From assembly GCA_947085205.1 (NCBI GenBank), contig CAMTVO010000028.1, forward strand, positions 1-40,720: a DNA stretch of 40,720 nucleotides. The letters run 5' to 3'. The notes under the pieces are model-generated. The model was not told where the DNA came from and made no database searches. It was given only the letters and a program-made list of their open reading frames with translations. Shown here piece after piece: positions 12,088-39,744 of the stretch (its first letter is position 1; every line of letters starts with the position of its first letter). This stretch comes from an uncultured Nitrospiraceae bacterium. GTDB lineage: Bacteria > Nitrospirota > Thermodesulfovibrionia > Thermodesulfovibrionales > Dissulfurispiraceae. A program made the position numbers and the translations under genes.

Positions 12088-13476
12088 CTATAAATTTAGA
12101 AAGGGTGAAGGCATAATGCCGATGATAAAGACCATTAGCACAGTTATCAGTATTGCAAGGCCTAATGACGGTGATGGGGTTATTGCTGCCTCCTCTTTCA
12201 TCTCTTTCATGTACATGTTCATTACTACCCTCAGATAGTAGTAAGCGGAGATGGCGCTGAATATTACGGCTATCACAACAAGCCATGTGTATCCTGCATT
12301 TATAACTGCCATAAAGAGGTTGAACTTGCCTATAAATCCTGCTGTGGGAGGTATTCCTGCGAGGGAAAACATAAATACGAGCATTGCCGCCGATATAAAC
12401 GGATGTTTTCTTGTAATACCCTCATAAGACTTTATCTCCTCCTTTTCCAGAAGTATTACCACTGCAAACGCCCCCATGTTCATAAATGCATATATGAGCA
12501 TGTACACCATCATGGCATCCATTCCTTCTTTTGTGCCCGGTATTATTCCCAGCAGCATATACCCTGCATGGGCTATGGATGAATATGCGAGCATTCTCTT
12601 TATGTTTGTCTGCGCCAATGCAAGCATGTTCCCCACCACAATAGTGATTATCGCTATGGCAATGAGTATTGTTCCCCAGTCCATTCTTGCCGAACCCAAT
12701 GCATCAAAAAAGACCCTGCCGAAAGCCGCAAAAGCCGCCGCCTTTGGGCCTATAGACATGAAGGCGGTTATCGGTGTGGGCGCTCCTTCGTACGCATCAG
12801 GGGCCCACATGTGGAATGGAGCCGCTGCTATTTTGAATGAAAAGGCCACTGCCATAGAGATAACGGCAAGCAGCATAACCGGATTTGCAGCAAGGCCGGT
12901 TTTTGCAATGTAATCGGCCACTGCTTTAAGGTTTGTGGTGCCGGTGAGGCCGTATATCATCGCTATGCCATAGAGCAGGATCGCAGTTGCAAATGTCCCT
13001 AAAAGAAAATATTTCAAGGAGGCTTCATTTGATTTCAGGTTGTGCCGCAGAAAACCGGTAAGGACATAAGTGCTCAATGACATGAGTTCGAGTCCAAGAT
13101 ATAGGACTATCAGGTCTCCGGCAGATGCCATGAGCATCATACCGATGGATGCAAGAAGAACAAGGCTGTAATATTCGCCGGAATGCCTCTCATCTACGGC
13201 GCTATAATTTATAGACATCAGGGCAGTCAGGGAAATATTCAGCATGAAAATATACTTGAAAAACATGCCATAGCCGTCGGATATGAACATGCCGTTAAAG
13301 GCGGTTCCTGCGGAGATCGGAATTACATAAGCTGCCGCAGCAGCGCTGAGTATGCTCAAAAAAGCCATAATGCTTTTCTTCTTAACCGCCAATCCTGCCA
13401 AAAAAACAGAGAGTGTAAGAACAGTCATTAGTATTTCAGGGAATAACGGCCCCAGTTCTCTCATCAGTTCAATCAT
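12088..13476 (-). CDS. nuoN: Complex I-like antiporter subunit N
   Basis: LELMSL, EASLKYFLLG, FKIAAAPFHMWAPDAYEGAP, KRMLAYSSIAH, SLAGIPPTAGFIGK. Confidence 0.95.
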   Translation of the reverse strand: MIELMRELGPLFPEILMTVLTLSVFLAGLAVKKKSIMAFLSILSAAAAAYVIPISAGTAFNGMFISDGYGMFFKYIFMLNISLTALMSINYSAVDERHSGEYYSLVLLASIGMMLMASAGDLIVLYLGLELMSLSTYVLTGFLRHNLKSNEASLKYFLLGTFATAILLYGIAMIYGLTGTTNLKAVADYIAKTGLAANPVMLLAVISMAVAFSFKIAAAPFHMWAPDAYEGAPTPITAFMSIGPKAAAFAAFGRVFFDALGSARMDWGTILIAIAIITIVVGNMLALAQTNIKRMLAYSSIAHAGYMLLGIIPGTKEGMDAMMVYMLIYAFMNMGAFAVVILLEKEEIKSYEGITRKHPFISAAMLVFMFSLAGIPPTAGFIGKFNLFMAVINAGYTWLVVIAVIFSAISAYYYLRVVMNMYMKEMKEEAAITPSPSLGLAILITVLMVFIIGIMPSPFLNL

Positions 13477-15005
13477 TTCAGCACCTCGATAATGCCTTTT
13501 ACAGCAGTGATTTCCTGACCGCCTGCACCGAACCTCTCGAGGAGATGCTGAACAGATGCCTGCGTGTAGCTTATAAGCACTGACGGTTGCAATCCCAGAT
13601 AAAAAACAAGGAAAACAAGGGGAACAAGCATTAATACCTCCCTCATGCCCATATCGTGAAGGTGTTCCTTTACCTTCGGATTAACATCAAACAAGAAAAT
13701 CCTGTAATAGAGCCACACCATGTACGCTACACCCAGTATAACCCCTGCGATAGAAACGGCACCCAGAGTCATTCTTACCTTAAACGCGCCGCTCAGGATA
13801 AGAAACTCGCCTATAAAAGAACTCATTCCAGGGAACCCGCTTCCTGCAAGCGCGAAAATGGTAAAAAAGACTGTGAATATCGGCATAGCGCGGGCAAGCC
13901 CTCCGTAGTCTTCAATCCTTCTCGTATGCGTCCTTTCGTATATAACCCCGATGCACATAAAAAGCGCACCTGTGACAATGCCATGACTTATCATCTGGAA
14001 TATCCCGCCCTCCATTCCTGTCCGGTTCAGTGAGAATAAGCCGAGGGTAACAAAGCCCATGTGGCTGACGCTTGAATATGCAATGAGCCTCTTAATATCC
14101 TTCTGCATCAGTGTAACAAAGGCGCCGTATACAATCGCTACGACAGAGAGCACGAGCATCGGCATGAAAAATATCTTTACCGCATCGGGGAACATCGGCA
14201 TCGAAAACCTGAGAAAGCCGTATGCGCCCATCTTAAGAAGTATTCCTGCAAGGATGACGCTTCCTGCCGTGGGCGCCTCTGTATGGGCATCCGGAAGCCA
14301 TGTATGCAGGGGGAACATCGGCACCTTGACTGCAAATGCCATGAAGAATGCCAGGAAAAGCCATATCTGAAGATTCACCGGGTAATGCGTCTTTGCAAGC
14401 GCAAGAATGTCGAATGTCCCGCCTCCGGCATAATAGAGCGCGATTATTCCGACCAGCATCAGGACGCTTCCGGCTAATGTAAAGAGGACAAATTTTATTG
14501 CTGCATATACCCTGTTCGACCCGCCCCAGATGCCTATAAGGAGGAACATCGGTATGAGCATTGCTTCCCATAGGATATAGAAGAGAACCAGATCCATGGC
14601 GGCAAAAACACCGGTCATGGCCATTTCCATTAAAAGGATTGCCGAATAAAACAACTTTATCTTTTCCTGCACAGCCTTCCATGAGACCAAAACGCAGAGC
14701 ACGCCGATTATTGTTGAAAGGAGCACAAATAGAATGCTTATCCCGTCTACACCGACCGCATAATTTAAATTCCATGCCGGTATCCATGGATAACTCTCGA
14801 CAAACTGCATCTTATATGTGGTCTTATCGAAATGTATATAGAGGGGCAATGAAACAACCAATGTTGCAAAGGTGGTTAAAAGGGCAGTCCACCGGATTGC
14901 ATAGGCATTCCTCAGAAGGGATATCAATAATGCCCCCGCCAAAGGAAGGAAAATAGTTATTGAAAGTATAGGGTAGCCGAGCCTGTTAAGTATTATGTCT
15001 TCCAT
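13473..15005 (-). CDS. nuoM: Complex I-like antiporter subunit M
   Basis: VGVDGIS, WEAMLIPM, AVKVPMFPLHTWLPDAHTEAPT, KRLIAYSSVSHMG, FIGEF. Confidence 0.95.
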   Translation of the reverse strand: MEDIILNRLGYPILSITIFLPLAGALLISLLRNAYAIRWTALLTTFATLVVSLPLYIHFDKTTYKMQFVESYPWIPAWNLNYAVGVDGISILFVLLSTIIGVLCVLVSWKAVQEKIKLFYSAILLMEMAMTGVFAAMDLVLFYILWEAMLIPMFLLIGIWGGSNRVYAAIKFVLFTLAGSVLMLVGIIALYYAGGGTFDILALAKTHYPVNLQIWLFLAFFMAFAVKVPMFPLHTWLPDAHTEAPTAGSVILAGILLKMGAYGFLRFSMPMFPDAVKIFFMPMLVLSVVAIVYGAFVTLMQKDIKRLIAYSSVSHMGFVTLGLFSLNRTGMEGGIFQMISHGIVTGALFMCIGVIYERTHTRRIEDYGGLARAMPIFTVFFTIFALAGSGFPGMSSFIGEFLILSGAFKVRMTLGAVSIAGVILGVAYMVWLYYRIFLFDVNPKVKEHLHDMGMREVLMLVPLVFLVFYLGLQPSVLISYTQASVQHLLERFGAGGQEITAVKGIIEVLK

Positions 15006-15014
15006 GTTTTATCC

Positions 15015-16778
15015 TCATAACAGTAGAATCAGTATTACAACTGCACATATCCCCCCACTCATTATAAAGGCGTAGTCGTGAACCTTACCGCTTTGTACAA
15101 TGCGCATGACCGCACTCCATGCGACCGTCAACCTTCCTATACCGTTGACTGCCCCGTCAACTACCTTTATATCAAAGGATCGCAAAATACCTGCAATCTT
15201 CATCACAGGTTTTATCACCATAAATTCGTATGCCTCTCCTACGACATTGTATTCAAATCTTACAATGGGCTTATTTACAAGCCATAAAAATGCCTTTGCC
15301 CCTTTTCTGTAGAACCAGTCCGTGTCGAGGTTGATCGCCCTGATTTCAGCAGGGTATATGCCGGAGAGCATAAGGAGACTAAAGGCCAGCGCTGAAAAGA
15401 ATAAAAGCTGAAGCTGGTCGATAACATGGGCTGCCGTATACGGCACATAATCTACGGGATAGGGGAGAATGGAATAAAGAAACCCTGGAAATACCCCGAT
15501 GAAAATGCACAAAAATGCGGCAATGCCCATGGCGAGAAGCATGTTGATGGGAGGCTCCTTTGTCCTTATACCCGAGTCGTGGGAGAAAAATGCAAAGAAT
15601 GGGATTTTTATTCCTGAATGGTGAAAAACGCCTGCCGAGGCAAACACCAGCGCAAACCATACGGGTATCAGTCCTTCAACACCCGATGCGCTGACGATCA
15701 TCGATTTACTCACAAACCCGTTCGTCAGCGGAAATCCTGAAATGGATGCAGCGCCCACTATGCAGAAAATTGTCGTTAAGGGCATAGTCTTGTATAATCC
15801 GCCCAGATCCGTGGCGTTAATCTTGCCTGTCTGGTGCAGCACTGCGCCCATGGACATAAACAGCAGCGCCTTATATAGGATATGACAGAAGGCATGAGCG
15901 ACCGTACCGTTCAGCGAAAGGGTTGTGCCTATTCCGACTCCCACCACCATAAATCCGACCTGGTTGATAAGGCTATAGGAAAGAACCCTCCTCAGATTGT
16001 TTTCTATGACGGCATAAAAGATGGGAAATGCCGTCATCGTAGCCCCGATCCAGATTAACATCTCTGTGCCCGGGAATCCCCTTGCCAGGACATAAACAGC
16101 CGATTTGGTGGTAAAGGCGCTTAAAAATACCGTGCCTGAAAAAGTCGATTCCGGGTAGGCATCAGGGAGCCATGAATGAAGAATGGGGAAGGCGGCATTT
16201 ATCCCGAATCCTAAAAGTATAAGATATGATGCCGGACCGTCCAGTCCTATGAATGAGAATACAAGGGAGCCTGTATCATGGTAGTGCAAGGTTATTCCTG
16301 CAAGGAGGCAAAGACCTCCGGCAATATGAACCAGCAGATAACGCAGTCCTGCACCCCGGGACGCCTCTGTTTTACTTGCCCATATAAGATAGGCAGCGGA
16401 AAAGGCCATTATCTCCCAGAATAAAAATAGAGTCAAGAAATCCCCTGAAAAGACAACACCCTGGGCGCTTCCGGCATAGATAAAGCCGGCAATGTGCTGC
16501 CCGTCGTCTTTTACCCGAAGGGAGTAAAGAACAGATATGAATGAGACAAGGGCAAAGATATATCCGAATGCCAGGCTGAGCTTATCGACCCTTCCGAAAA
16601 TGAGTTCATACCCCAAAAAATTCACAATCCAATATGTGCCCTCATGCATACTGAGCAGGCTTATGGAGGCAAGGACAGGCAGCAGCAATAAATAGACGGA
16701 TTTCAACCTCCCTCTTAAAAAGAAAATGATAGGCGCGCCGATGATAAAGATTGCGGCAGGCGCAACGGCATTAATCAT
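15015..16778 (-). CDS. MrpD-like antiporter subunit with NuoL-type C-terminal lateral helix (functional NuoL substitute)
   Basis: FWEIM, HSWLPDAYPE, RRVLSYSLINQVG antiporter core. C-terminus DIKVVDGAVNG...VQSGKVHDYA plus a final TM resembles the NuoL tail. Confidence 0.8.
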   Translation of the reverse strand: MINAVAPAAIFIIGAPIIFFLRGRLKSVYLLLLPVLASISLLSMHEGTYWIVNFLGYELIFGRVDKLSLAFGYIFALVSFISVLYSLRVKDDGQHIAGFIYAGSAQGVVFSGDFLTLFLFWEIMAFSAAYLIWASKTEASRGAGLRYLLVHIAGGLCLLAGITLHYHDTGSLVFSFIGLDGPASYLILLGFGINAAFPILHSWLPDAYPESTFSGTVFLSAFTTKSAVYVLARGFPGTEMLIWIGATMTAFPIFYAVIENNLRRVLSYSLINQVGFMVVGVGIGTTLSLNGTVAHAFCHILYKALLFMSMGAVLHQTGKINATDLGGLYKTMPLTTIFCIVGAASISGFPLTNGFVSKSMIVSASGVEGLIPVWFALVFASAGVFHHSGIKIPFFAFFSHDSGIRTKEPPINMLLAMGIAAFLCIFIGVFPGFLYSILPYPVDYVPYTAAHVIDQLQLLFFSALAFSLLMLSGIYPAEIRAINLDTDWFYRKGAKAFLWLVNKPIVRFEYNVVGEAYEFMVIKPVMKIAGILRSFDIKVVDGAVNGIGRLTVAWSAVMRIVQSGKVHDYAFIMSGGICAVVILILLL

Positions 16779-17013
16779 AGTATCCCTCCTTCCTTTTTAT
16801 CAGAGGCCGTAATATGTATTTTGCTGCAAGGACAAGCACTACGCAGGCAACGAATCCAAAGGCGGCATAAAAGGACGGATAACCCTCGAATGCAAAATAT
16901 GGGTGTTTGTGGACAAAAAGGTCGATGACTATAAGCGCTATTAGCGAAGCAAAGAACACCTTCAGAAATTTCTTCAGATTTCCCGGCTTGTCGAAAAAAT
17001 GTTTCTTTTCCAT
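16771..17013 (-). CDS. Small 2-TM membrane protein (80 aa) associated with Mrp-like subunits
   Basis: Two hydrophobic segments, GAGG RBS, overlaps the next start; C-terminal RKEGYYD. Confidence 0.8.
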   Translation of the reverse strand: MEKKHFFDKPGNLKKFLKVFFASLIALIVIDLFVHKHPYFAFEGYPSFYAAFGFVACVVLVLAAKYILRPLIKRKEGYYD

Positions 17014-17023
17014 ATTATTTTCC

Positions 17024-17161
17024 TCAAAGACTTTTTAGAAAAATTACTGCAAGATACAGGATGCCCACTAAAAAGACTATGTAAAACGCTGTTCTGTAAC
17101 CCGAAACAGGCTCATGGCTTAGTTCCATGATCTCCTTTTTTTCTTCCTGTTGTCCAGACAT
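17024..17161 (-). CDS. Unannotated 45-aa single-TM protein
   Basis: Translated by hand: MSGQQEEKKEIMELSHEPVSGYRTAFYIVFLVGILYLAVIFLKSL*; GGAG RBS; fills the operon gap exactly; below the ORF-track length cutoff. Confidence 0.75.
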   Translation of the reverse strand: MSGQQEEKKEIMELSHEPVSGYRTAFYIVFLVGILYLAVIFLKSL

Positions 17162-17173
17162 CTTAAAATCTCC

Positions 17174-18652
17174 TCATTTAACTATCAGATTCGCAAAATT
17201 TATTATAAGATCAGGGTAAAAGCCCAAAATCACGCTTATTACGGCACATAAAAACAAAGGCGCTACCAGCATCGGATTTTCCTTGATCTCTTCGTGATGA
17301 TGATGGTCATCTTCTGCTTTTTCAAAAAATGCCTTATAAACTATCGGCACAAAATAAGAAGCATTGAGCAAGGTGCTTGTAAGCAGCACCATGAGAACCG
17401 TTAGACTCTCCCTTTCCATAGCCCCCACCAGTAGATACCACTTTGTAATAAAACCTCCCGCCGACGGCACGCCGATCATGCCCATAGCGCCGATGGCAAA
17501 GGCAGCCATCGTCCAAGGCATCTTCCTGCCGATACCGCTCAACTGGCTTATTTCGGTCTTATGCGCCGATACATAAAGGGAGCCTGCGCAGAAAAATAGG
17601 GTAATCTTTGCAAAGGCATGGTTGGTTATGTGTATTATCCCGCCGATCATTCCGCTTGTCGTTAAAAGCGCTCCGCCGAGGACAATGTAAGACAATTGAC
17701 TGATTGTAGAGTATGCCAGCCGTGCCTTCAGGTTGTCTCTACTGATGGCAATCACGGATGCCATGACTATGGTGAATGATGCAAAGAAGATCGCATAGTT
17801 ATCGGCGCCGATGTTTTTCAAGAGATCTGTTCCGAAGACAAAAAATATCACCCGCAATACTGAAAAGACGCCGGTCTTCACAACAGCCACTGCATGAAGA
17901 AGGGCGCTGACAGGCGTGGGAGCAACCATTGCTGCAGGGAGCCAGCCGTGCAAAGGCATAACTGCACACTTTGCAAAACCAAAGAGATAAAGAAGAAACA
18001 GCACGCTGATCAGCACAGGATGGGCCGCCTTTACCGCATCAGGGAATAAGCCTCCTTTTGTAAATTCGAGGGTCCCCGCGAGGTTGTAAGTCAAAATAAT
18101 GGCTGCCACAAGAAATGCCTTTGCAGCGCCGAGCAGGTAAATAGCGTATTTCCTCGCTCCCACCTTCGATTCAGGAAGCTTCTTATGGGAAACAAGGGGA
18201 TATGTGATTATTGTCAAACCCTCGTAGAATAAAAACAGCGTAAAGAGATTTGCTGAAAACGCCACCCCCATTGTAGTGGAAAGGGCAATGGCAAAGCATG
18301 AGAAGTATCGTGTCTGGGAGTGTTCGTTAAGGGGCCTCATGTAGCCGATAGAATAAAAGGTCGTCACGATCCAGAGGAAGGAAGCGCCTAATGCAAAGAG
18401 TATTCCAAAGGCATCTGCCCTGAACTTTATATCGATACCCGGCATCAAGTGAAAAAGAGTATACTCTATGGTCTTTCCATCGAGCACAGCAGGAACCATA
18501 GAGGCCACGAGAAGAAATTTCACTACCCCCGCAGCAACGGACCAGAACTCCCTGAGGTTCTGCCTCTTCTGTCCTGTCAGGATAATAAGAAATGTAGCTG
18601 CAACAGAAACCAGTACAGTAAGCAGAGGAATTATAGATGTAATTTTTTCCAT
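17174..18652 (-). CDS. MrpD-family (extra M-like) antiporter subunit
   Basis: FYEGL, AKCAVMPLHGWLPAAMVAPTPVSALLHAVAVVK, KARLAYSTISQL, GFITKW. Confidence 0.88.
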   Translation of the reverse strand: MEKITSIIPLLTVLVSVAATFLIILTGQKRQNLREFWSVAAGVVKFLLVASMVPAVLDGKTIEYTLFHLMPGIDIKFRADAFGILFALGASFLWIVTTFYSIGYMRPLNEHSQTRYFSCFAIALSTTMGVAFSANLFTLFLFYEGLTIITYPLVSHKKLPESKVGARKYAIYLLGAAKAFLVAAIILTYNLAGTLEFTKGGLFPDAVKAAHPVLISVLFLLYLFGFAKCAVMPLHGWLPAAMVAPTPVSALLHAVAVVKTGVFSVLRVIFFVFGTDLLKNIGADNYAIFFASFTIVMASVIAISRDNLKARLAYSTISQLSYIVLGGALLTTSGMIGGIIHITNHAFAKITLFFCAGSLYVSAHKTEISQLSGIGRKMPWTMAAFAIGAMGMIGVPSAGGFITKWYLLVGAMERESLTVLMVLLTSTLLNASYFVPIVYKAFFEKAEDDHHHHEEIKENPMLVAPLFLCAVISVILGFYPDLIINFANLIVK

Positions 18653-18671
18653 TCTTTATCCTTTTGGTCCC

Positions 18672-18980
18672 TTACCCCTTCAAGATATCCATCTCATCCA
18701 TGTGCGGCGTGGGTTTGTTCCTGAAGGCCGCTATCACCAAAGCAAGTCCCACCGCAACACCGGCTCCGGCGCATGCGATTACAAAAAAAACAAGCACCTG
18801 TCCACGCATATCCTGCATATAATGGCTCAGGGCTAACAGGCTTATATTGACGCCGTTGAGCATAAGCTCGATGGACATGAACATCATGATGATGTTTCTC
18901 CTTATGAGAAAGCCGAATACGCCGATTATGAATACGACAGCGCCGAGCATAAGGTACCATGTGAGAGGGACGGGGTTCAT
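18672..18980 (-). CDS. nuoK: Complex I subunit K
   Basis: 102 aa, 3 TM, RRNII...SIELMLNGVN. Confidence 0.93.
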   Translation of the reverse strand: MNPVPLTWYLMLGAVVFIIGVFGFLIRRNIIMMFMSIELMLNGVNISLLALSHYMQDMRGQVLVFFVIACAGAGVAVGLALVIAAFRNKPTPHMDEMDILKG

Positions 18981-19495
18981 GCCTTCCTCCCTTTAACGGC
19001 CAAAACCACCGCAGCAATCATGGGAACAAAGAGCACGAGGGCCAGGATCATAAAGGGGAATACGTATTCGTTAAATAATACCGTTCCCAAAACCTTTGTG
19101 TGGGTTTCGCTCTGTATATATTCGATGGAATATTTTCCATGCGGCGCGATCACGGCATACTGTAAGACAAGCATTATTCCAAGCAGTAATGCTGCTGCTA
19201 CGAAACCCCTCCCCTGCCATGAACTTATAAACCGCCGCCCTTTAAACTCCTCCTTAACATTAAGGAGCAGGACAACAAAAAGGAAAAGCACTAAAATGGC
19301 GCCTGCATAAACTATTATCTGTATAGCTGCGATAAATTCGGCATTCAAAAACAGATAAAGGCCTCCGATATGGACAAAGAGGAGGAGCATCCACATAATG
19401 CCGTGCACCAGGTTTTTCCGCGTTATCGCCAGCAAGGACAGTATGGTTATCATTGCGGCAAAGTACCCAAAAAATAATTTCGGCAGCATATCCAC
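18977..19495 (-). CDS. nuoJ: Complex I subunit J
   Basis: LNAEFIAAIQIIVYAGAILVLFLFVVLLL motif. Confidence 0.93.
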   Translation of the reverse strand: MDMLPKLFFGYFAAMITILSLLAITRKNLVHGIMWMLLLFVHIGGLYLFLNAEFIAAIQIIVYAGAILVLFLFVVLLLNVKEEFKGRRFISSWQGRGFVAAALLLGIMLVLQYAVIAPHGKYSIEYIQSETHTKVLGTVLFNEYVFPFMILALVLFVPMIAAVVLAVKGRKA

Positions 19496-19510
19496 TCCGT
19501 AATATTTACT

Positions 19511-20512
19511 TTACAGCCATCTCTTCACAAAGGCTGTTATTAAAACATTCACGAATGCCAGGGGCATCAGCACCTTCCATCCGATTGCCATGAGCTGATC
19601 ATACCTGTATCTCGGCAATGTCGCCCTTATCCAGTAATAAAAGAACATGAATGCATACACCTTCACGAGAAACCATATAATCCCCGGCACGTATGACAGG
19701 AACGGCATTGCATTTGTCATAAACATGGGAATCGTCCAGCCTCCCAGAAAACAAAGCGCGGCAACGGCGGACATTGTGAGCATCGCGACATACTCGCCGA
19801 GAAAGAAAAATGCGAACCTGAAACCGCTGTATTCGGTGAAATAACCGGCAACCAGTTCCGACTCAGCCTCGGGAAGGTCAAAGGGCGCCCTGTTTGTCTC
19901 GGCAAAGGCGGCAACGACAAATACAAAGAAACCCAGAAACTGGGGGAATGCGAACATGCCCAGAGGATGCTGGTGTTGTGCTCTTACAATATCGGAAAGG
20001 TTCAACGAACCTGCCATAAGCATCACTCCTACCAGGCTAAGTCCCATGGCTATCTCGTAGCTTATTAACTGGGCGGCAGACCTCAATCCCCCCAAGAAAG
20101 AATATTTCGAATTTGACGACCATCCTGCAATCACAATACCGTAAACGCTGAGTGAGGTTATAACGAGCAAAAAAAGTAGTCCGATGTTGATATCCGCAAT
20201 TACAAACCCGTCGAAAAAGGGCAGAACGGAAAGCGCTGTCATTGCCGATATTACGACTATGGCAGGGGCGATATAAAACAATGGCCTGTCTGCACTCGCA
20301 GGGATTATATCCTCCTTAAAAAACAATTTGATCATGTCGGCAACGGGTTGAAGGAGTCCGTGCGGCCCCACCTCCATAGGGCCGTACCGGGCCTGCATCC
20401 GTCCTATTATCTTGCGCTCAAAATAAGTAGCGTATGCCACATGAAAAAGCACGATGCCGAAGACGACAGTTATCTTTATTGCTATTATTGCCAGTGTCAT
20501 TACAAAGTCCAT
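19511..20512 (-). CDS. nuoH: Complex I subunit H
   Basis: ERK...QARYGP, GLLQPVAD, AETNRAPFDLPEAESELVAG, PRYRYDQLM. Confidence 0.96.
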   Translation of the reverse strand: MDFVMTLAIIAIKITVVFGIVLFHVAYATYFERKIIGRMQARYGPMEVGPHGLLQPVADMIKLFFKEDIIPASADRPLFYIAPAIVVISAMTALSVLPFFDGFVIADINIGLLFLLVITSLSVYGIVIAGWSSNSKYSFLGGLRSAAQLISYEIAMGLSLVGVMLMAGSLNLSDIVRAQHQHPLGMFAFPQFLGFFVFVVAAFAETNRAPFDLPEAESELVAGYFTEYSGFRFAFFFLGEYVAMLTMSAVAALCFLGGWTIPMFMTNAMPFLSYVPGIIWFLVKVYAFMFFYYWIRATLPRYRYDQLMAIGWKVLMPLAFVNVLITAFVKRWL

Positions 20513-20515
20513 TTT

Positions 20516-21049
20516 TTATCCCTTCCACTCAAACTGCTTAAAGCGTTCCGCCTTATCGAGGACTTCGACAAATCCCCTCCATTTTTTCTCCGGCCCCTCT
20601 ACGGGGTAGTCTTTTCTGAGCGGGTAACCTTCCCAGTCCTCCGGCATAAGTATCCTTCTTAAATCAGGATGACCGTTGAAAACTATGCCGAACATATCAA
20701 GACATTCCCTTTCATGCCAGTTTGCGCCTTCCCATATGTCCACCACGCTGTCGACAGCGCAGTCCTCTTCAGGCACTTCCGCCTTTATCCTTATCCTATG
20801 TCTGTGATCCATCGAATAGAGGTGATAAACCACTTCGAATCTCGGCTCTTTCCTGCCGAGATAATCCATGCCGCAGAGATCTTCGAGATAGTCGAAGGAC
20901 AGTTCAGGCGTATCGTGGAGGAACTGCATAATCTCAACTATTTTGTCTTTCCTGACAGTTACCGAAACCTGCCCGCGGAATTCGGTTATCCCTTTTACTT
21001 CCAGTGAAAATCTCTCTTTAATAAACTCCGCTATTGCTGTCGGCACCAT
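20516..21049 (-). CDS. nuoC: Complex I subunit C
   Basis: RFEVVYHLYS, ANWHERECLDMFGI, GHPDLRRILMP, PLRKDYP. Confidence 0.95.
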   Translation of the reverse strand: MVPTAIAEFIKERFSLEVKGITEFRGQVSVTVRKDKIVEIMQFLHDTPELSFDYLEDLCGMDYLGRKEPRFEVVYHLYSMDHRHRIRIKAEVPEEDCAVDSVVDIWEGANWHERECLDMFGIVFNGHPDLRRILMPEDWEGYPLRKDYPVEGPEKKWRGFVEVLDKAERFKQFEWKG

Positions 21050-21439
21050 TTATTCCTTTCCTTTATCTTTCCAATCCAATGCGCCCATCTTCCAATCATA
21101 GGCATATCCGATGAAGATGATGAGTATAAATATCACCATTCCCCAAAATCCATAGAGTCCTATATTGCCAAATGCCACGGCCCACGGATACAAAAATGCA
21201 GCCTCGACATCGAAAACAACGAAAAGCATTGCAACGACATAAAACTTTATGGAAAACCTCTCCCGCGGCTCTCCCACAGGAGGATTGCCGGACTCATAGG
21301 ACAAGAGTTTCTCTGAATAAGGCCTTCTCAATTTGAAGATTGCGCCGAGAAGCAGACCTCCCGCTACAAAGGCGGTTGCAGCCATCAGCGTAATAAGAAT
21401 CGGCAGATATGCGGATGGGATATAAGCCCCGGGCATCAT
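21050..21439 (-). CDS. nuoA: Complex I subunit A
   Basis: YESG, KFYVVAMLFVVFDVE, LYPWA, GALDW. Confidence 0.95.
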   Translation of the reverse strand: MMPGAYIPSAYLPILITLMAATAFVAGGLLLGAIFKLRRPYSEKLLSYESGNPPVGEPRERFSIKFYVVAMLFVVFDVEAAFLYPWAVAFGNIGLYGFWGMVIFILIIFIGYAYDWKMGALDWKDKGKE

Positions 21440-22008
21440 AAGGTTACCTTCTCCTCGTGTTTGATAGGAATCGGCTCCTGAAGTCTCTTGCCGACCGGCA
21501 TTCTTTTTATGTCTATGCCTTCGAGTCTCCAGAATTTGTTGAAATATGTATCGGTCTTAAGTCCGGAGGAAAAATCATCCCAATTCTTCAATAACATCTC
21601 CCGGTCGAAAAGAAAGTGCTCGCGGGAGTAATCAGCGTATTCGTACACCTCTGTAAGCACGAGAGCGCACACAGGACACACCTCGGCGCAATACCCGCAG
21701 AAGACACATCTGAGCGCCTCGATCTCATATCTTTCGAGAATCCTTTCTCCCTCTGTTTCTTTATATTCGACCCGTATGCACCGGGATGGACATACTATGG
21801 AACATTTTAAACACGCAACACATTTCTCCCGTCCGGTTTCAGGATCTCTCACAAAGGCATGCCTTCCTCTGAAGCCGGGAAAGGGATCTCTCTTTACTTT
21901 CGGATATCTCCGCGTGACCGGATGGTTTATCATTGTCCTGAAGGTCAAAGCCAATCCCTTCAGGATTTCGAGGAAAAATATTTTCTTAGCAATATCCCTC
22001 AATGTCAT
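21436..22008 (-). CDS. nuoI: Complex I subunit I (2x[4Fe-4S]), C-terminally extended
   Basis: FRGRH, CVACLKCSIVCP and CVFCGYCAEVCP. Start moved to ATG 22008 (GAGGAG RBS, avoids overlap with nuoD). Confidence 0.93.
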   Translation of the reverse strand: MTLRDIAKKIFFLEILKGLALTFRTMINHPVTRRYPKVKRDPFPGFRGRHAFVRDPETGREKCVACLKCSIVCPSRCIRVEYKETEGERILERYEIEALRCVFCGYCAEVCPVCALVLTEVYEYADYSREHFLFDREMLLKNWDDFSSGLKTDTYFNKFWRLEGIDIKRMPVGKRLQEPIPIKHEEKVTL

Positions 22009-22018
22009 GCGGCTCTCC

Positions 22019-23227
22019 TCATCGGTCGCATTCTCCGAGAACAATATCTATGGTTCCTATAAGCGCTATTACATCAGCCACCATATGCCCCTTGCACAAC
22101 CTGGGCAAGGCAGCGGCATGCACAAAGGACGGCGACCTGAACCTCATGCGGTAGGGCATCCCGCTGCCGTCGCTGACTATGTAGAAGCCTAACTCGCCTT
22201 TTGGAACTTCTGTCGGCGAGTAAAATTCACCGGCCGGCGTTATATGTTCGCACTCATCGGATAAAGATATGCATGCGTGGCTGAGAGACATGTCGGGAAT
22301 TAATCTTTTGCGGCCCTCCGGCGGCATATCGAGGTCGGGCGCATCGTCGGCAAGAATAGGTCCATCAGGCATCTTCTCAATGCACTGCCTGATAATACGG
22401 TTTGACTGCCTCAATTCCTCCATCCTGCATCTATACCTGTCGTATACGTCCCCGTTTTCACCTACAGGAACTTCAAAGTCCACAAAAGGATACGCATCAT
22501 AAGGCTCATGCTTTCTGACATCATAAGAAACGCCCGACCCCCTAAGAGTCGGTCCGGTCAATCCGCAATGTACGGCGTCCCTTGCGCTTATCACCCCTAT
22601 CCCTTTTGTCCTCTGAAGCCATATCCTGTTCTGGTCTATAAGCGTTTCGTATTCTTCTATCCTCTTCGGAAATTCCTCTGTGAATTTATATAAACTGTCT
22701 AAAAATTCCCGACTCACATCGCATCTTACTCCGCCTATCCTCGGATAACTCACGGTGAGTCTTGCTCCACAGGTCATTTCGAATAAATCAATCAGCCATT
22801 CCCTTTCTCTGAACGAATAAAGAAATACCGTCATTGCTCCTATATCCAGCGCATGGGTAGCGAGCCATATGATGTGGCTGCTTATTCTCGTCATCTCGGA
22901 CATTATCGTTCTTATGTATTTCGCCCTCTCCGGAGCTTCTATGCCGAATAGCTTTTCCACCGCAACGCAATATCCTACATCGTTGGACATGCTGGATATG
23001 TAATCGAGCCTGTCCATCAAGGGCAGCGCGGAAATGTATGTCCTGTTCTCAGCAAGTTTCTCGGTTCCCCTGTGCAGATAGCCTACATAAGGCGTACACT
23101 TGACTACCGTCTCGCCGTCCAGTTGCAGCACAAGTCTCAACACCCCGTGCGTGGCCGGATGCTGAGGACCCATGTTCAGGGTCAACTCCCTTGTCTGTAG
23201 ATCCTTTTCTATCTCCATCTGCTCCAC
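22019..23227 (-). CDS. nuoD: Complex I subunit D (no NiFe-binding CxxC motifs)
   Basis: [49 protein letters not shown]. Start probably GTG 23227 (or ATG 23218). Confidence 0.94.
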
Positions 23228-23730
23228 TTGAAATATTCTCCCTGTATCTTTTCCTGCAGCTTCATCATGCCGTACATCAATGCCTCCGGTCTCGGCGGGC
23301 AACCGGGGATATAAACATCCACAGGCAGGAAACTATCACACCCCTGTACAACACTGTAGGTGTTATAAATATTCCCGGAACATGCGCAGCTTCCCATAGA
23401 TATTACATACCTCGGTTCAGGCATCTGGTCATAGACTCTACGCACAATGGGCGCCATTTTCATGGTTACTGTCCCGGCAACTATCATAAAGTCTGCCTGC
23501 CTGGGCGAGCCTCTGAAGATTACCCCCAGCCTGTCCAAATCATAATGTGACGATCCCGTCGTCATCATCTCTATGGCGCATCAGGCCAATCCAAAGGTCA
23601 GGGGCCACATTGAAGACTTCCTTCCCCACTTCACTATCCTGTCAATGTTGGTTATGATGGTATTCGCGCCGGGAATTATCTTCAAACCTTCTTCGACTTC
23701 CACAACAGATGTGGTGCCGTCTATGATCAT
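23209..23730 (-). CDS. nuoB: Complex I subunit B, predicted selenoprotein (U50)
   Basis: ATG 23730 with AAGGAGG RBS reads ...[24 protein letters not shown], continuing in frame into the 119-aa ORF ([26 protein letters not shown]); 173 aa total. Confidence 0.92.
23542..23574 (-). promoter_or_regulatory. Putative bacterial SECIS hairpin in nuoB
   Basis: After the UGA: ...ATG-A-TGACGA-CGGGA-TCGTCA-CAT; 6-bp perfect upper stem starting 17 nt after the UGA, G-rich 5-nt loop. Confidence 0.7.
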
Positions 23731-23816
23731 CTGCCCTCACCTCCTTTTCGTTATAGCATCTATTGCGTTATTGGGTTTATAGCACTAAACGCTCAACGCC
23801 ATATCCTTATAACGCT

Positions 23817-24329
23817 TTAGTACAATGCCCCGAATTCAGCAATCTCTTTTGCGAATTTCTCACGCTTCAGCAGAGATGCCTCTGCTGCCGAAACCCATTT
23901 AAGGGAATGGGCTGTGCATTTAGTAACGCACGCAGGCTTCAGTCCCTTATCAACCCTGTCTTTACAGTAGTCGCATTTAATGACCTTTCCTGTCTCGGAA
24001 TTCCATTGCGGGACGCCCCACGGGCATGCTGTAATGCATGACTTGCAACCGACGCACAGAGATTGTTCGACAAAGACGATACCGTCCTTTGACCTTTTCT
24101 GCATTGCGCCTGTAGGACATGCCGATACGCACCACGGCTTTTCGCAGTGAAAGCAGGGCATGAAAATAAACTGCGCCCTCGGGACACCGCCTATCATCTT
24201 CGGTCCGACAGGCATAATCCTGCAAAACCTCGGCCCGACAGGCACATTGTTCTTCGTTTTACAGTGAACCTCGCACGCATAACAACCTATGCATCTTTTT
24301 TGATCCTGATAGATGTAATATATGCTCAT
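23817..24329 (-). CDS. 4x[4Fe-4S] electron-transfer subunit (PsrB/DmsB/NrfC family)
   Basis: CIGCYACEVHC, CFHCEKPWCVSACP, CVGCKSCITACP, KCDYC...PACVTKC. Confidence 0.93.
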   Translation of the reverse strand: MSIYYIYQDQKRCIGCYACEVHCKTKNNVPVGPRFCRIMPVGPKMIGGVPRAQFIFMPCFHCEKPWCVSACPTGAMQKRSKDGIVFVEQSLCVGCKSCITACPWGVPQWNSETGKVIKCDYCKDRVDKGLKPACVTKCTAHSLKWVSAAEASLLKREKFAKEIAEFGALY

Positions 24330-24360
24330 TTATCTCCTCCAAACTATTGATTTTTGTTTA

Positions 24361-26439
24361 TCAGGTCTTCTTAACGCCTACCATACATTCAAGATACGCA
24401 ACACCGCCGCCGACAGGGTCAACCGTTTCGAGCAATCCTATTTCAAGCTTCGTATCGCTTAGCCCCTTTTTATATGACCTTGTCTTAAGTGGTATTTCAC
24501 TGCCGAATCCATGCACCATAAAAATGGCCTCCGGATGTATAAAAGGCGTGACTTTAGCCTTGATCTTTCCGCTGTATCCATTGGAAGATACTTCTACGGT
24601 ATCACCATCCTTTATTCCCAATTCCTTAGCCTCATCCTCGTTTATCCACAGGACATTCTCAGGCATGAGTTCATTCAGATATATATTGTTCTGCGACTGC
24701 GCATGGGCATGGATGGCGCTCCTGCCGAAAGTGAGCCTAAAGGCGCCTTTTTCTGGTTTCTTAGGAGTTGCGTATGATTTAAAAGATTCAAATCCATCTT
24801 TTGCGAGCTCCTGGGAGATAAATTCGATCTTCCCTGAAGGGGTATTGAACTTCAAGTCATTCCTATCCTTAAATATCGGATCCTTTGCAAGGCCTACAGA
24901 ACCTTTGGCGCTGAAATCTTCAATCTTAACGCCTGTGCCTTCAAGCTGATAGTTCCAGATATCCTCAATGCTTTTATACGGGAAATATTCGCCTGCGCCC
25001 ATCTTCTGGGCGAAAAGAGTGAAAATCTCCCATGCAGGTTTGCTGTCATACCTCGGCGGAATGGCCTGCTTTCTCATGATGAAAGAGGGTTTCGGCCCTT
25101 TTGCCGTGCCTATGATATTTGACCTCTCAAGATAAGTGGATTCAGGAAGTATAACATCGGAATACCAGCCTGTCTGGCTGTAGTTCACATCTATGGAAAC
25201 CAACAGATCTAAATTGTCCAGAACCTTTTTCTGAGCTTCCGGGTCGGGGAGCGCGGCTATCGGATCAAAGCGATAGGCGAAGAATGCCTTTATGGGATAA
25301 GGCTCTCCTGTTTTTATCGCCTTATATAAATTTACGAGATGTCCTGTTCCGAATGATCTATCGGGCATGGCCGCATCCACTATCTTATCCTTGACGGCCG
25401 GCATATTTGCACCGAGGGATTTTAGCGGTTTCTTTCCCGCGTCACCCGGTCCTTTTGCGATGATCAAACCGCCCTTTGTTTCAATGTTTCCCATTAAGAC
25501 ATTAAGAATATAGAGGGTTCTGCTGTGATAAAAAGAATCGACGTATCGTGCGAGCATCCATCCGGGATGGAATATTACTTTGGGCTTATCATTGCTTACA
25601 TCACGGGCAAGATTGATAATTTCCTGCGCTGCAATGCCTGTCTCTTTCTCCGCCCACTCCGGTGTATAAGGAATGACAAAGCTCTCAAGCTCTGTCAGAC
25701 CTGTTACATATTTATTCACAAAGTCCACATCGTAGAGCCTTTCTTTCAATATTACATTAATAATGGCCAGGTTGAGCGCATAATCCGTTCCCGGTCTTAT
25801 CATAAGGAATCTGTCGGCCTTCGACGCAGTAACATTTGCCCTGATATCTATATACGTAAGCTTCGCTCCCTTATCCAGGGCATCCAGCATGTTATTCACT
25901 TCCTTAACCTGAAGCGACTCGAGAATATTCCGTCCATAGAGCACTATATGTCTTGCATTCGCAAGGTCATAAATAAACTCGCCACGACCGGCAAATCCAA
26001 AAAGGCTCTTGCATGCCATATCCACATTTTTGCCGCATGTATCGTCATGGCTGAAGTAATTGGGCGAACCCACTGCCTTCAAAAAACTCGTTGTCAGGTC
26101 GGTAAAAGGGCCGCTTCTATCGGAAAGGGCTATGGCCTTGCCGCCGTGTTTCTCGGTTATAGCCTTGAGCTTCCCTGTTATATAATCAAGAGCTTCGTCC
26201 CATGTCGTCTTCTTCCATTTCCCCGAGCCCCTTTCACCATCCCTTATCATCGGATATTGAGGACGCTCCGTGTCGTATTCAAAGGCAAGACCTGCAGACC
26301 CCTTTGCGCAGAGGCTTCCTTCCAGCCCTGGCTCGTGGGGATTGCCCTCAATCCACTTAACAACGCCGTCCTCTACCTCTACTTTTATAGAGCAGCGGAC
26401 AGCGCACATGCCGCACATGCTATATACAATTTCTCCCAT
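24361..26439 (-). CDS. Mo/W-bisPGD oxidoreductase catalytic subunit, PsrA/PhsA (polysulfide/thiosulfate reductase)-like, no Tat signal
   Basis: FS0 motif CGMCAVRC...LCAKG begins at residue 9 with no twin-Arg leader; HDDTC Cys ligand region; PGTDYA, DVILPESTYLER, TPSGKIE, C-terminal molydop-binding domain. Confidence 0.88.
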   Translation of the reverse strand: MGEIVYSMCGMCAVRCSIKVEVEDGVVKWIEGNPHEPGLEGSLCAKGSAGLAFEYDTERPQYPMIRDGERGSGKWKKTTWDEALDYITGKLKAITEKHGGKAIALSDRSGPFTDLTTSFLKAVGSPNYFSHDDTCGKNVDMACKSLFGFAGRGEFIYDLANARHIVLYGRNILESLQVKEVNNMLDALDKGAKLTYIDIRANVTASKADRFLMIRPGTDYALNLAIINVILKERLYDVDFVNKYVTGLTELESFVIPYTPEWAEKETGIAAQEIINLARDVSNDKPKVIFHPGWMLARYVDSFYHSRTLYILNVLMGNIETKGGLIIAKGPGDAGKKPLKSLGANMPAVKDKIVDAAMPDRSFGTGHLVNLYKAIKTGEPYPIKAFFAYRFDPIAALPDPEAQKKVLDNLDLLVSIDVNYSQTGWYSDVILPESTYLERSNIIGTAKGPKPSFIMRKQAIPPRYDSKPAWEIFTLFAQKMGAGEYFPYKSIEDIWNYQLEGTGVKIEDFSAKGSVGLAKDPIFKDRNDLKFNTPSGKIEFISQELAKDGFESFKSYATPKKPEKGAFRLTFGRSAIHAHAQSQNNIYLNELMPENVLWINEDEAKELGIKDGDTVEVSSNGYSGKIKAKVTPFIHPEAIFMVHGFGSEIPLKTRSYKKGLSDTKLEIGLLETVDPVGGGVAYLECMVGVKKT

Positions 26440-26494: not shown

Positions 26495-26525
26495 AATAAA
26501 AGGGTGAGGAGATTACTCCTCACCC
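26495..26525 (-). terminator. Intrinsic terminator-like hairpin between the PhnD-type gene and the molybdoenzyme gene
   Basis: GGGTGAGGAG-ATTA-CTCCTCACCC 10-bp perfect stem (26502-26525) followed on the minus strand by TTTTATT. Confidence 0.65.
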
Positions 26526-26555
26526 CATGGCTTTGGCTTGAAAATCAAGTGTGTA

Positions 26556-27423: not shown

Positions 27424-27825
27424 TTATTTTGGCGTGGGTATTACGCCGAGGAGCATCAGCCCCAATATTGCAAGCCCTGTTACAGCTACCCTTTTTACCC
27501 ATTGAGGGTTTAACCTCTTTGATATCTGTGGACCAAGATAACCTCCAATTATTGCTCCAACAGCCATAAATCCAAAGAGGAGAAAATCCACATTGCCAAA
27601 GCCAACCACTCTGGAGGTTGCCATCGCTGTATTAAAGAATATGGCCAAAAGGGAGCTTCCCACAACAACATACATTGGAAGACCCATTAAAACGGTCATT
27701 AAAGGCACCATAAAAGGGCCGCCTCCAAAACCGAACATACTGGACATTATGGCTATCAAAAAGCCGCCTGTGCAACCAACGATCATATTTGCCTTGAATT
27801 CTTGACCCCAAAATTCTATCTTCAT
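27424..27825 (-). CDS. TauE/SafE sulfite-exporter family, half-size (133 aa)
   Basis: SSMFGFGGGPFMVP, VVGSSL, GGYLGP motifs. Start at ATG 27825 (MKIEFWG) with GGAGG RBS. Confidence 0.85.
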   Translation of the reverse strand: MKIEFWGQEFKANMIVGCTGGFLIAIMSSMFGFGGGPFMVPLMTVLMGLPMYVVVGSSLLAIFFNTAMATSRVVGFGNVDFLLFGFMAVGAIIGGYLGPQISKRLNPQWVKRVAVTGLAILGLMLLGVIPTPK

Positions 27826-27847: not shown

Positions 27848-29038
27848 CTACTTTTCTGCCTTCTTTGCGGCTGCCTCTTCAGCCCTCTTCTTAAATTCCT
27901 TAAGAATGGCCTGTTCTTTCTTGTTTTTCGAAATATATCCAGGAGTCGTCTGCCACAGCATGATAGCAGCAAGGATTAACAGTACCCAGCCAAAAAGGAA
28001 TTTATACTGGTCAAGGGTTATCATTTCTGTTAGTTTAGGACCGATAAAGCCGCCAACTAACATTGCCAGGCCAACCCCCACACCCAATTTCCAGTTAATG
28101 AACTTTATCTTGCTGTAATTATATATCCCAGAGCCCTGGCTGAAAAGCACGCTCGGAAGGACAGAGCCTGCGACAACAGCATGGGGTATTCCATAGATAA
28201 ATATCAGAAGCGGGTTAAGAATAAAGCCCCCGCCTGCACCCATAGTAACGCCAAATGTGCATACGGCTACAGCGAGGAAAAAAGGCCCTAGTATATTCAG
28301 GCTCTGGCCTGCCCTATCAAAATACAGTTTCCCAAAAGACAGGTCGTGCTTAAATGTTGTAGGCGCACTTTTTAGATCCTTATCTACAACAGCAGTAATC
28401 ATATAAGATCCGCTCGGGGCGTTATCAGGCAACTTGTATTCGGCTTCGAATCTTCCATCCTCATTTATTTTTATTGTTGGGCTGAACATCCTTTCGGGCC
28501 ACCTGTACCTCGCCTTCATAAGAGGCATTGACTGCCTCCTGTTGCCTTTTTCATCCATTGCCTCGAGTTGATCACCCCTCGAACCCAATATAGTGGCTAA
28601 AATGGATGCCTGCCACCTGTCCACCATGGCTTTTGCAGGAGTTAGGTAAGCAGCATCCGCGCCGGTTGTTGTGAGCATTCTGCTTACGCTCCAGTCTTTG
28701 CCTTTTGCCTTTTCTATCTTGTATGCCTCCTCAACCTCTTTCGGCATAAGCATCATATAGAGTGCAGGAATATTTTTGCTTAAATAGAATATATACGGTA
28801 TCTTCCCTGTATCAGGGTCCCGCTTGCTATCGAGTCTCGCAACCTGCACTGTTTTCTCAGAGACTATTTCAATATAAACAGGCCTTCCGGCAGGGGCTGT
28901 TCCATTTATCTTAATGATCTCTCCTCCTTTGTATTCAGGCTTATCCAGCGACAACATTACCTGTTCAGCAGGCTGTGCCGCAAAGGCCATCCCTGAGGCA
29001 ATGATGATAAAAGCAAATACTAAAATATAGTTTTTCAT
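27848..29038 (-). CDS. Secreted N-terminal domain fused to a half TauE/SafE domain
   Basis: Signal peptide, ~225-aa soluble region, then MGAGGGFILNP...GSVL...GGFIGP TauE half. Confidence 0.82.
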   Translation of the reverse strand: MKNYILVFAFIIIASGMAFAAQPAEQVMLSLDKPEYKGGEIIKINGTAPAGRPVYIEIVSEKTVQVARLDSKRDPDTGKIPYIFYLSKNIPALYMMLMPKEVEEAYKIEKAKGKDWSVSRMLTTTGADAAYLTPAKAMVDRWQASILATILGSRGDQLEAMDEKGNRRQSMPLMKARYRWPERMFSPTIKINEDGRFEAEYKLPDNAPSGSYMITAVVDKDLKSAPTTFKHDLSFGKLYFDRAGQSLNILGPFFLAVAVCTFGVTMGAGGGFILNPLLIFIYGIPHAVVAGSVLPSVLFSQGSGIYNYSKIKFINWKLGVGVGLAMLVGGFIGPKLTEMITLDQYKFLFGWVLLILAAIMLWQTTPGYISKNKKEQAILKEFKKRAEEAAAKKAEK

Positions 29039-29537: not shown

Positions 29538-29553
29538 TGCAATAGTTATACCA
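29538..29553 (-). promoter_or_regulatory. sigma54 (-24/-12) promoter
   Basis: Minus strand TGGTATAACTATTGCA = GG-N10-GC, ~65 nt upstream of usp; sigma54 activator encoded immediately upstream. Confidence 0.8.
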
Positions 29554-31072: not shown

Positions 31073-31073
31073 A

Positions 31074-39735: not shown

Positions 39736-39744
39736 AAACAGGCC

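Follow-up and report, generated by a model that had tools for sequence, protein, structure and literature searches.

What does a cytoplasmic molybdenum enzyme of the thiosulfate/polysulfide reductase type do when it is encoded directly ahead of a complex I operon without nuoE, nuoF and nuoG? The question is raised by a 40,720-nt contig of an uncultured Nitrospiraceae bacterium (contig C28, hereafter the window; the genome is 1.89 Mb long and 89.7% complete, and the named organisms nearest to it belong to the Thermodesulfovibrionales, Nitrospirota). Its minus strand carries genes for a molybdenum-bis(pyranopterin guanine dinucleotide) (Mo-bisPGD) subunit and an iron-sulfur (FeS) subunit, followed by a "headless" nuo operon. 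This system is a complex I variant, and its gene link, already known, is real and conserved. We propose that the Mo/FeS pair would dock on complex I as in formate hydrogenlyase (FHL), and that thiosulfate reduction would be driven by the motive force. To this whole chain we assign a probability of about 0.35. The part of the system that we did not find in print is a selenocysteine (Sec) predicted at cluster N2.

The genes from the Mo subunit onwards are as follows (window coordinates; (-), minus strand; Tat, twin-arginine translocation; TM, transmembrane helix).

24361..26439 (-), Tat-less PsrA/PhsA-like Mo-bisPGD subunit, 692 aa
23817..24329 (-), 4x[4Fe-4S] subunit of the PsrB/DmsB/HycB type
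23209..23730 (-), nuoB, 173 codons through a TGA; N2 ligand positions 50 (TGA), C51, C115 and C144
22019..23218 (-), nuoD, 399 aa, with the quinone-site His and Tyr motifs and without the CxxC [NiFe] motif
21436..22008 (-), nuoI, two 4Fe-4S motifs
21050..21439 (-), nuoA
20516..21049 (-), nuoC
19511..20512 (-), nuoH
18977..19495 (-), nuoJ
18672..18980 (-), nuoK
17174..18652 (-), MrpD-type subunit 1 (MrpD1, PRK08375), an additional pumping-type subunit (the fourth); Glu in TM5 and Lys in TM7, TM8 and TM12 present
17024..17161 (-), 45-aa membrane microprotein, one predicted helix, unnamed
16771..17013 (-), 80-aa microprotein, two helices, conserved, unnamed, with 187 unnamed homologs
15015..16778 (-), MrpD-type subunit 2 (MrpD2, PRK12668), NuoL-like lateral and last helix; TM7 Lys replaced by Asn
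13473..15005 (-), nuoM
12088..13476 (-), nuoN

This order, Mo subunit, FeS subunit, nuoB-D-I-A-C-H-J-K, MrpD1, two microproteins, MrpD2, nuoM and nuoN, was derived from the open reading frame (ORF) listing and family scans. It agrees with a preliminary description made from the DNA alone, which had reported one co-directional run: all its genes were found, in the stated order, including the two microproteins (45 and 80 aa). The same scans detected no nuoE/F/G and no NrfD/PsrC family in the run, as had also been claimed. Two entries were revised. The four antiporter-like genes are present and can be described more precisely as MrpD-type, MrpD-type with a NuoL-like tail, NuoM and NuoN. nuoB is present too, but it starts at 23730 rather than 23568 and has 173 codons rather than 119, an in-frame TGA having been overlooked. 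Intergenic gaps from nuoB through nuoN range from -10 to +19 nt; the Mo and FeS genes are 31 nt apart, and 86 nt separate the FeS gene from nuoB. Clear ribosome-binding sites precede most genes of the run. Homolog searches with the microproteins returned hypothetical proteins only, and an Rfam scan gave no match inside the operon.

The best NCBIfam model for the Mo subunit is PhsA (529.6 bits, below the equivalog cut-off of 694), and among solved structures T. thermophilus PsrA comes closest (2vpw_A, E 5e-122). The protein has neither a Tat leader nor a hydrophobic helix and, in line with the earlier claim of a missing leader, begins directly at the FS0 motif (C9, C12, C16, C44). C135, which aligns with the Mo ligand of PsrA, and the clade-specific R108 and H131 are invariant in 94 of 94 clade rows, some genomes being counted twice; W294 is a third clade-specific residue. 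In the alignment to 2vpw, R108 and W294 occupy the positions of PsrA His145 and Arg332, residues with a role in the substrate funnel. One doubtful Tat motif is found in the 94 clade rows versus 8 in 11 outgroup rows. On a FastTree phylogeny, built without three loci whose Mo matches were short, a long branch with a support of 0.785 splits the Tat-less clade from Tat-type PsrA. Tree and alignment give a distinct Tat-less clade with a Cys Mo ligand. In the FeS subunit, four 4-Cys sets are all invariant in 30 aligned sequences.

No anchor was found for this pair. NrfD had no match in 108 ortholog loci (controls L017-L019 were positive), and the same NrfD scan of these loci showed no SoeC-type anchor. 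A cytochrome b-type PhsC was not seen in general scans of the window, which included no query aimed at PhsC. TorD, searched with one query, had no match in the 108 loci. A MOLY cluster, with exported MolyAB and TorD/DmsD, was rejected on that ground (PMC12998232, PMC13490349; papers are cited here by PMC accession, most of them from the accessible parts of their text). The Mo/FeS pair would work like PhsAB or PsrAB, though outside a PsrABC/PhsABC complex; its sequence does not specify the substrate.

The pump is of the quinone type. In the window and in the relatives examined, NuoD carries the quinone-site His/Tyr motifs and no [NiFe] motifs. A group 4 [NiFe] hydrogenase identity (FHL/Ech/Mbh) was rejected, NuoD being without CxxC motifs. 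The quinone module (NuoB, C, D and I) has the N2 ligands and the NuoD His and Tyr, the first N2 ligand being present only if the TGA is decoded. NuoL is replaced by two MrpD-type genes, which reach 150.8 and 184.7 bits with the NuoL model against a cut-off of 407.5. The central-axis charged residues are present in NuoM, NuoN and MrpD1. MrpD2 has a NuoL-like tail without the long helix insertion, and its TM7 Lys is absent in 14 of the 14 copies, out of 18, where the motif could be read. The run is thus not a canonical 14-subunit complex I: it has no NuoL-M-N set, and NuoEFG lie outside it, on contig C59 only.

That contig (19000-38619) holds a separate, complete nuoA-N operon of the same genome. 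The headless complex might borrow its NuoEFG, the Mo genes being mere neighbours. A full nuoEFG in the genome and the 76% identity between the window and C59 NuoD speak for such borrowing. We regard it as very improbable, since the C59 operon has its own full set and since Thermodesulfovibrio sp. N1 has a Mo-linked cluster with nuoEFG in neither of its clusters (PMC5165239).

The gene link extends well beyond the window. An ortholog of the Mo subunit, at least 53% identical, occurs in 15 of 40 relatives, with a TauE gene adjoining the Mo gene in all 15 loci. The pair is followed by a B-D-I-A-C-H operon in four of them, by nuoA and then the contig end in one, and by nuoD-nuoI only in three. The others show a NuoEF- or NfnB-type flavoprotein module (five), a 2Fe-2S protein only (one) or the contig end (one). 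The best 80 loci among species genomes include ten from Desulfobacterota with a second order, Mo, FeS, nuoA-B-C-D-H-I (Thermodesulfatator autotrophicus among them), and flavoprotein modules are common beside the pair. Out of 20 regions chosen by nuoB, 17 have the Mo pair, 16 in the window order and one in the A-B-C-D order. The pooled 108 loci, a sample biased by 17 loci picked for nuoB adjacency, comprise 35 with complex I, 4 with nuoD(I), 44 with a flavoprotein or 2Fe-2S protein, 8 with other neighbours and 17 at a contig end. Thus Mo-nuo adjacency is conserved in both Nitrospirota and Desulfobacterota, as the preliminary description had suggested checking.

The partner modules interleave on the Mo tree. 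Because many relatives carry Mo and FeS genes without complex I, the pair is a portable catalytic unit with exchangeable partners for low-potential electrons; complex I is one of them, in two gene orders. The alternative partners (NuoE, HydB-like NuoF, 2Fe-2S and NfnB-like proteins) are all NAD(P)H/ferredoxin-type modules, which would fit a couple near -400 mV. Several loci (L039, L050, L054, L068, L070, L072, L101 and others) show the pair followed by NuoE, HydB-like NuoF and 2Fe-2S genes. This NuoEF-linked form is a candidate electron-confurcating thiosulfate reductase, for which our literature search returned no named precedent. Two further arrangements were noted. In Thermodesulfobacteria (L094, L104, L107, L109), a second 4x[4Fe-4S] gene lies between the FeS gene and nuoA and would lengthen the wire. 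In one relative (L041, 8800-13100), about 4 kb with transposase pieces separate the FeS gene from nuoB.

Does the pair dock on complex I, or is it only co-regulated with it? In the second case, the pair would act as PhsAB in solution. The headless complex I would be, as in cyanobacterial NDH-1, a ferredoxin:menaquinone oxidoreductase, filling or draining the pool of a diffusible carrier. The occurrence of the pair with several different modules is in favour of this scheme, as are the Dissulfuribacter pair, which is unlinked to nuo (PMC13490349), the frequency in these phyla of headless complex I without a Mo neighbour (PMC4911364, PMC12142623), and the loose binding of FdhF even in FHL (PMC9474812). 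Against it, two independent gene orders place the pair directly 5' of nuo genes, remnant loci retain nuoD-nuoI by the pair, and the window's run has no ferredoxin gene. We consider the undocked scheme rather unlikely.

The docked scheme has a structural precedent. In FHL, HycB binds HycF and contacts NuoD- and NuoI-type subunits (PMC9474812). By analogy, the FeS subunit would dock NuoI as HycB docks HycF, giving a wire from menaquinol (MKH2) through N2, N6b/N6a, the four clusters and FS0 to Mo. This docking wire is probable. Of the nuo genes, the remnant loci keep nuoD and nuoI alone, precisely those whose FHL counterparts touch HycB. These loci may be decay remnants, or may supply swap-in subunits for a canonical complex I. 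In four loci (L032, L033, L034, L056), the pair is followed by intact nuoD and nuoI (nuoI being damaged or absent in L056), without nuoB or membrane genes. The likeness of the Mo subunit to NuoG, invoked in the preliminary description, is the weaker analogy because FdhF docks differently from Nqo3/NuoG (PMC9474812). The adjacency, the Tat-less clade, the sulfur context and the FHL precedent support part of that interpretation; the occurrence of the pair without complex I weakens it.

The surroundings point to sulfur. TauE genes had been taken earlier as a sign of a sulfur substrate, and a TauE pair, TtrS-like binding proteins, dsrAB and aprA are indeed present. The genome also has [NiFe] hydrogenase genes and genes for futalosine-type menaquinone (MqnA/D family); the TIGR00423 profile gave no match, which is uninformative. 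Other Psr-like enzymes of the genome, Tat-type or NrfD-anchored, are encoded on contigs C38, C39 and C46. Within the proposed chain, the substrate would be thiosulfate rather than polysulfide or sulfite, a choice that we find somewhat favoured, and the sulfite product would then go to Dsr or Apr. Thiosulfate reduction has a potential of about -400 mV. If thiosulfate is the substrate, electrons likely flow mainly in reverse, from quinol to Mo, which would be paid for by ions entering through as many as four antiporter-like subunits. By estimate, the transfer from quinol to thiosulfate is uphill by 63 kJ/mol at standard state (4.4 H+ at 150 mV) and by 35 kJ/mol with 10 uM sulfite (2.4 H+). The cost is within reach of 3-5 ions.

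Published proteomes bear on this choice. In Desulfolithobacter, GF1_30490 (PhsA-1, 701 aa), 30500 (PhsB-1, 168 aa) and 30510-30540 (NuoA-D) are consecutive (PMC9751629), orthology to the window genes being judged from order and lengths. Normalized spectral abundance factors in disproportionation/sulfate reduction are 0.124/0.087 for PhsA-1, 0.068/0.046 for PhsB-1, 0.098/0.047 for NuoC, 0.082/0.026 for NuoD and 0.069/0.031 for NuoJ; NuoA and NuoB were detected only in thiosulfate disproportionation (PMC9751629). In Dissulfuribacter, a Tat-less, C-less PhsAB is up by 2.5-3.5 log2 in thiosulfate disproportionation (PMC13490349).

A docked, reductive enzyme could also act on polysulfide, tetrathionate or another oxyanion. 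Among solved structures PsrA is the closest, the funnel residues are clade-specific and unlike those of PsrA, and the binding proteins score weakly to tetrathionate-sensor and selenate/phosphonate models. For polysulfide, however, about 2.5 H+ suffice, NADH itself would serve as a direct reductant, and the above proteomes tie Tat-less PhsAB to thiosulfate growth (PMC13490349, PMC9751629). Such a substrate appears quite improbable. Alternatively, the docked complex could run forward, oxidizing sulfite to sulfate (Soe-like) or joining sulfite and sulfide into thiosulfate, with electrons going to menaquinone and ions pumped out. The anatomy would be the same, and an extra pumping subunit suits both directions. 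Passing electrons from sulfate/sulfite to menaquinone would release an estimated 85 kJ/mol or so, enough for 5 H+ at 180 mV, and the TauE family is named for sulfite export. But the nearest families and the solved relative are Phs/Psr reductases, and the genome already has AprA for sulfite chemistry. We hold the forward direction to be unlikely; with the undocked scheme, it is the principal competitor of the proposed chain.

Several points weigh against the thiosulfate-reducing chain. The substrate of PsrA is not transferable, because the active-site residues differ (R108 for His145, W294 for Arg332). The pair does not depend on complex I, given 44 flavoprotein or 2Fe-2S loci and 8 with neither, versus 35 with complex I. 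Four pumping units are not assured, because MrpD2 has neither the TM7 Lys nor the long helix insertion. In Desulfolithobacter, sulfate reduction was the only condition with NuoI, and most subunits had spectral counts of 1-7. The authors are doubtful about a major role of Phs and state that no functional analysis of C-less PhsAB exists; the accessible part of their paper does not join the PhsAB-Nuo loci as one complex (PMC9751629). In Dissulfuribacter, the nuo genes, unlinked to PhsAB, fell as PhsAB rose (PMC13490349).

In the proposed system, the UGA in nuoB would be read as Sec, separately from the docking, substrate and flow steps. The two features concerned are:

23581..23583 (-), TGA in frame, where the tandem-Cys motif has its first Cys; probably decoded as selenocysteine
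23548..23564 (-), hairpin resembling a selenocysteine insertion sequence (SECIS): 6-pair stem, 5-nt loop, G at loop position 2, loop 22 nt after the UGA

The nuoB frame continues 5' beyond the ORF called at 119 aa and reaches, at 23730, an ATG with a strong ribosome-binding site; the nuoB product matches PF01058/TIGR01957 over the full length (244 bits versus a cut-off of 142.7). The TGA could be a nonsense change or an assembly error in a decaying operon. On the NuoB tree, Sec and Cys interleave with 12 changes (a quick search on 131 columns, with 13 of 121 branches well supported), and three relatives have nuoD-I remnants only; both facts would suit decay. Against decay, the same codon is found at the same site in 57 of 702 genomes, with none in a backward-pattern control. 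Carriers are 34 of 401 Nitrospirota genomes, all in the window's class (34/135, versus 0/266 elsewhere), and 23 of 301 Desulfobacterota genomes. A protein search in 134 class genomes gave the same 33 TGA carriers, other matches being Cys or open, with one TAA. Both nuoB copies of the window genome carry the TGA, and every other gene of the run is intact. An assembly error was rejected, contigs from two other runs, one of them from another study, matching the window across the site. Decay is hardly credible in the face of these data and of the hairpin conservation.

Among genes that encode the same heptapeptide behind the site, the exact hairpin codons are found in 20 of 20 TGA genes versus 2 of 22 Cys genes. 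Synonymous identity in the TGA genes is 1.0 at the four stem codons; over the 68 further degenerate codons it is 0.36, and not one of these is fixed. Kin are not independent in this test, and the same genes serve as internal control. Stem synonymous sites are frozen only in TGA genes, and the sole variable base of the hairpin falls in the loop. Other clades have different hairpins with the same geometry. With a relaxed SECIS model (after PMC13188914: 3-9 nt loop, G in the first two loop positions, 16-37 nt from the UGA) and thresholds set here (5 pairs, -5 kcal/mol, suboptimal folds allowed), 61 of 61 TGA genes fit versus 19.2 expected by synonymous resampling; for Cys genes, the figures are 21 of 67 versus 25.5. 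Mean hairpin energies are -7.5 kcal/mol for TGA genes and -4.2 for Cys genes.

The window genome has selA, selB, selD, tRNA-Sec and a TGA-bearing formate dehydrogenase, with selB at 4117-6000 (-) of the window, 6 kb from the operon. selA is present in 33 of 33 TGA genomes, yet the correlation is weak because 129 of the 134 class genomes have it anyway. On the opposite side, the window hairpin (-6.5 to -7.4 kcal/mol for a 30-nt piece) does not reach the limit of -7.5 given in the literature, and dinucleotide shuffling yields weak hairpin z-scores (-0.06 to -1.62). Taken together, the codon, hairpin and gene data make it very likely that the UGA is read as Sec and that N2 is ligated through it.

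This Sec would be no part of the Mo coupling. Since 23 of 32 Mo-linked nuoB genes have Cys, Sec is dispensable for the Mo-linked complex, which tells against giving it a place in the chain, and we rejected it as a feature special to that complex. The other nine carry TGA, and most TGA genes are in the ordinary nuoABCD order. The TGA is thus a lineage trait outside Mo coupling. In the C59 operon (14 genes), which an HdrB/SdhE-like gene precedes, nuoB shares the TGA and the type of hairpin. One cluster holds 13 database records of 109-119 aa, NuoB proteins whose call starts behind the TGA or which are of comparable length; the Sec reading explains this error. Table 1 of PMC13188914, with 119 families, has no NuoB entry, and the term "nuo" is not found in the accessible parts of PMC13188914, PMC13326102 and PMC12013277. 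Literature searches gave no paper on Sec in NuoB; BSepDB and its supplements could list NuoB. A second selenoprotein candidate is a very long Tat-type Mo enzyme gene on contig C16 (L129, 5324-9631). In its frame lies a TGA at 5984-5986, with a Cys three codons further on and, by eye, a 7-pair hairpin about 20 nt 3' of the TGA; a TorD-like gene follows.

The following features, all 5' of the Mo gene, complete the picture.

32703..34400 (-), tandem PhnD-like periplasmic binding protein with weak likeness to the TtrS sensor domain (family scan)
31074..32699 (-), sensor histidine kinase with sCache, HAMP, HisKA and HATPase domains (family scan)
29714..31096 (-), sigma-54-dependent response regulator of the NtrC/AtoC type (family scan)
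29673-29688 and 29642-29657 (within 29642..29688), two TGTCC-N6-GGACA palindromes, probable activator sites
29539..29553 (-), sigma-54-like -24/-12 site with one mismatch
29055..29471 (-), universal stress protein (usp), first gene of the run (family scan)
27848..29038 (-), TauE/SafE half with an N-terminal periplasmic domain
27424..27825 (-), second TauE/SafE half, 133 aa
26556..27395 (-), PhnD-like periplasmic binding protein (family scan)
26501..26526 (-), 11-pair hairpin with a T run between the binding-protein and Mo genes, terminator-like or a stabiliser

In the proposed scheme, the binding protein and kinase would sense thiosulfate or a related oxyanion, the sigma-54 promoter would open the run and TauE would move the anion. 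The palindrome recurs 5' of usp in 5 of 16 related loci examined, and a sigma-54 match in 9 of 16. The window has six sigma-54-like matches versus 6.1 expected, so that the site alone is at chance level; a sigma-70 promoter scan was also close to chance (41 versus 32.6). One metatranscriptome contains a relative about 8% different, in which one contig joins the binding-protein gene to the Mo gene and none joins the FeS gene to nuoB. Contigs cannot show transcripts, so no conclusion on co-transcription is drawn from it. A paralog of the binding protein is encoded on contig C15 (282-8853; L133), with a DASS symporter, a CRP regulator, an HdrA/QmoA-like gene and an AprAB-like pair that scores under the cut-off for AprA. 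At the ends of the window lie the 5' end of a 16S rRNA gene (1-258 (-), Rfam) and an integron integrase with a divergent OGG-like gene, possibly the first cassette (38384-40666).

Put together, a complex I-based, stand-alone menaquinol:thiosulfate oxidoreductase, in which an arm of four antiporter-like subunits spends motive force to bridge a 300 mV gap and N2 is selenolate-ligated, is a tentative and rather doubtful picture. If true, it would be the first case of a Mo-sulfur enzyme connected directly to a quinone-type complex I, and a sulfur-oxyanion module would join the known complex I heads. It would also supply the missing energy-coupled first step of thiosulfate respiration or disproportionation. 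For the energisation of C-less thiosulfate reduction (about -400 mV) from menaquinol, the operon names a candidate, and cultured carriers are Thermodesulfatator autotrophicus S606, Desulfolithobacter dissulfuricans GF1 and Thermodesulfovibrio N1. A Sec at N2, if confirmed, would be a natural ligand swap at the quinone-reacting cluster and a tool for the complex I mechanism; a selenolate N2 is not part of the selenoprotein catalogue in PMC13188914 (Table 1).

The closest published case is Thermodesulfovibrio sp. N1, where a Psr/Phs-type A and B pair is linked to an EFG-less nuo cluster (THER_0567-0582) and where a sulfur-compound redox reaction coupled to proton transfer was proposed in 2016 (PMC5165239). 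The Mo-complex I gene link and the coupling idea, which is also that of the preliminary description, are therefore already in print. The 14 locus tags after the pair probably correspond to the 14 genes found here. That paper is a genome description, and its accessible text mentions neither MrpD in place of NuoL, nor module swapping, nor Sec; that of PMC10553843 contains nothing on a Mo-linked complex I. PsrABC/PhsABC (2vpw) share the A and B families, FS0 and the Cys Mo ligand; in contrast, the window has no Tat leader or C subunit, its funnel residues are changed and complex I stands alongside. The cytoplasmic PhsAB of sulfur disproportionators are Tat-less and C-less as here (PMC13490349, PMC9751629). 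Canonical NuoB/Nqo6/PSST have the three other N2 ligands in common with the window protein, whereas here a TGA, accompanied by a SECIS-like hairpin, takes the place of the first codon of the tandem Cys pair. The arm of the window complex matches, by description rather than by direct comparison with rhizobial sequences, the "green" complex I of rhizobia. Like Complex_I_3 of Manganitrophaceae, the latter has two MrpD-like subunits for NuoL, with four pumping-type subunits, and reverse electron transport was proposed (PMC9040806). Complex_I_3 differs from the window complex by its count of five such subunits and by a helix insertion of 26 residues, absent here, and the accessible text describes no Mo enzyme for these complexes (PMC9040806). 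A related architecture is E. coli FHL (FdhF-HycBCDEFG), in which a Mo-bisPGD enzyme and a 4x[4Fe-4S] protein are wired to NuoI-, NuoB- and NuoCD-type subunits (PMC9474812). FHL has a [NiFe] site and one antiporter-like subunit, whereas the window encodes a quinone-type NuoD, four antiporter-like proteins and a Psr/Phs-like Mo enzyme.

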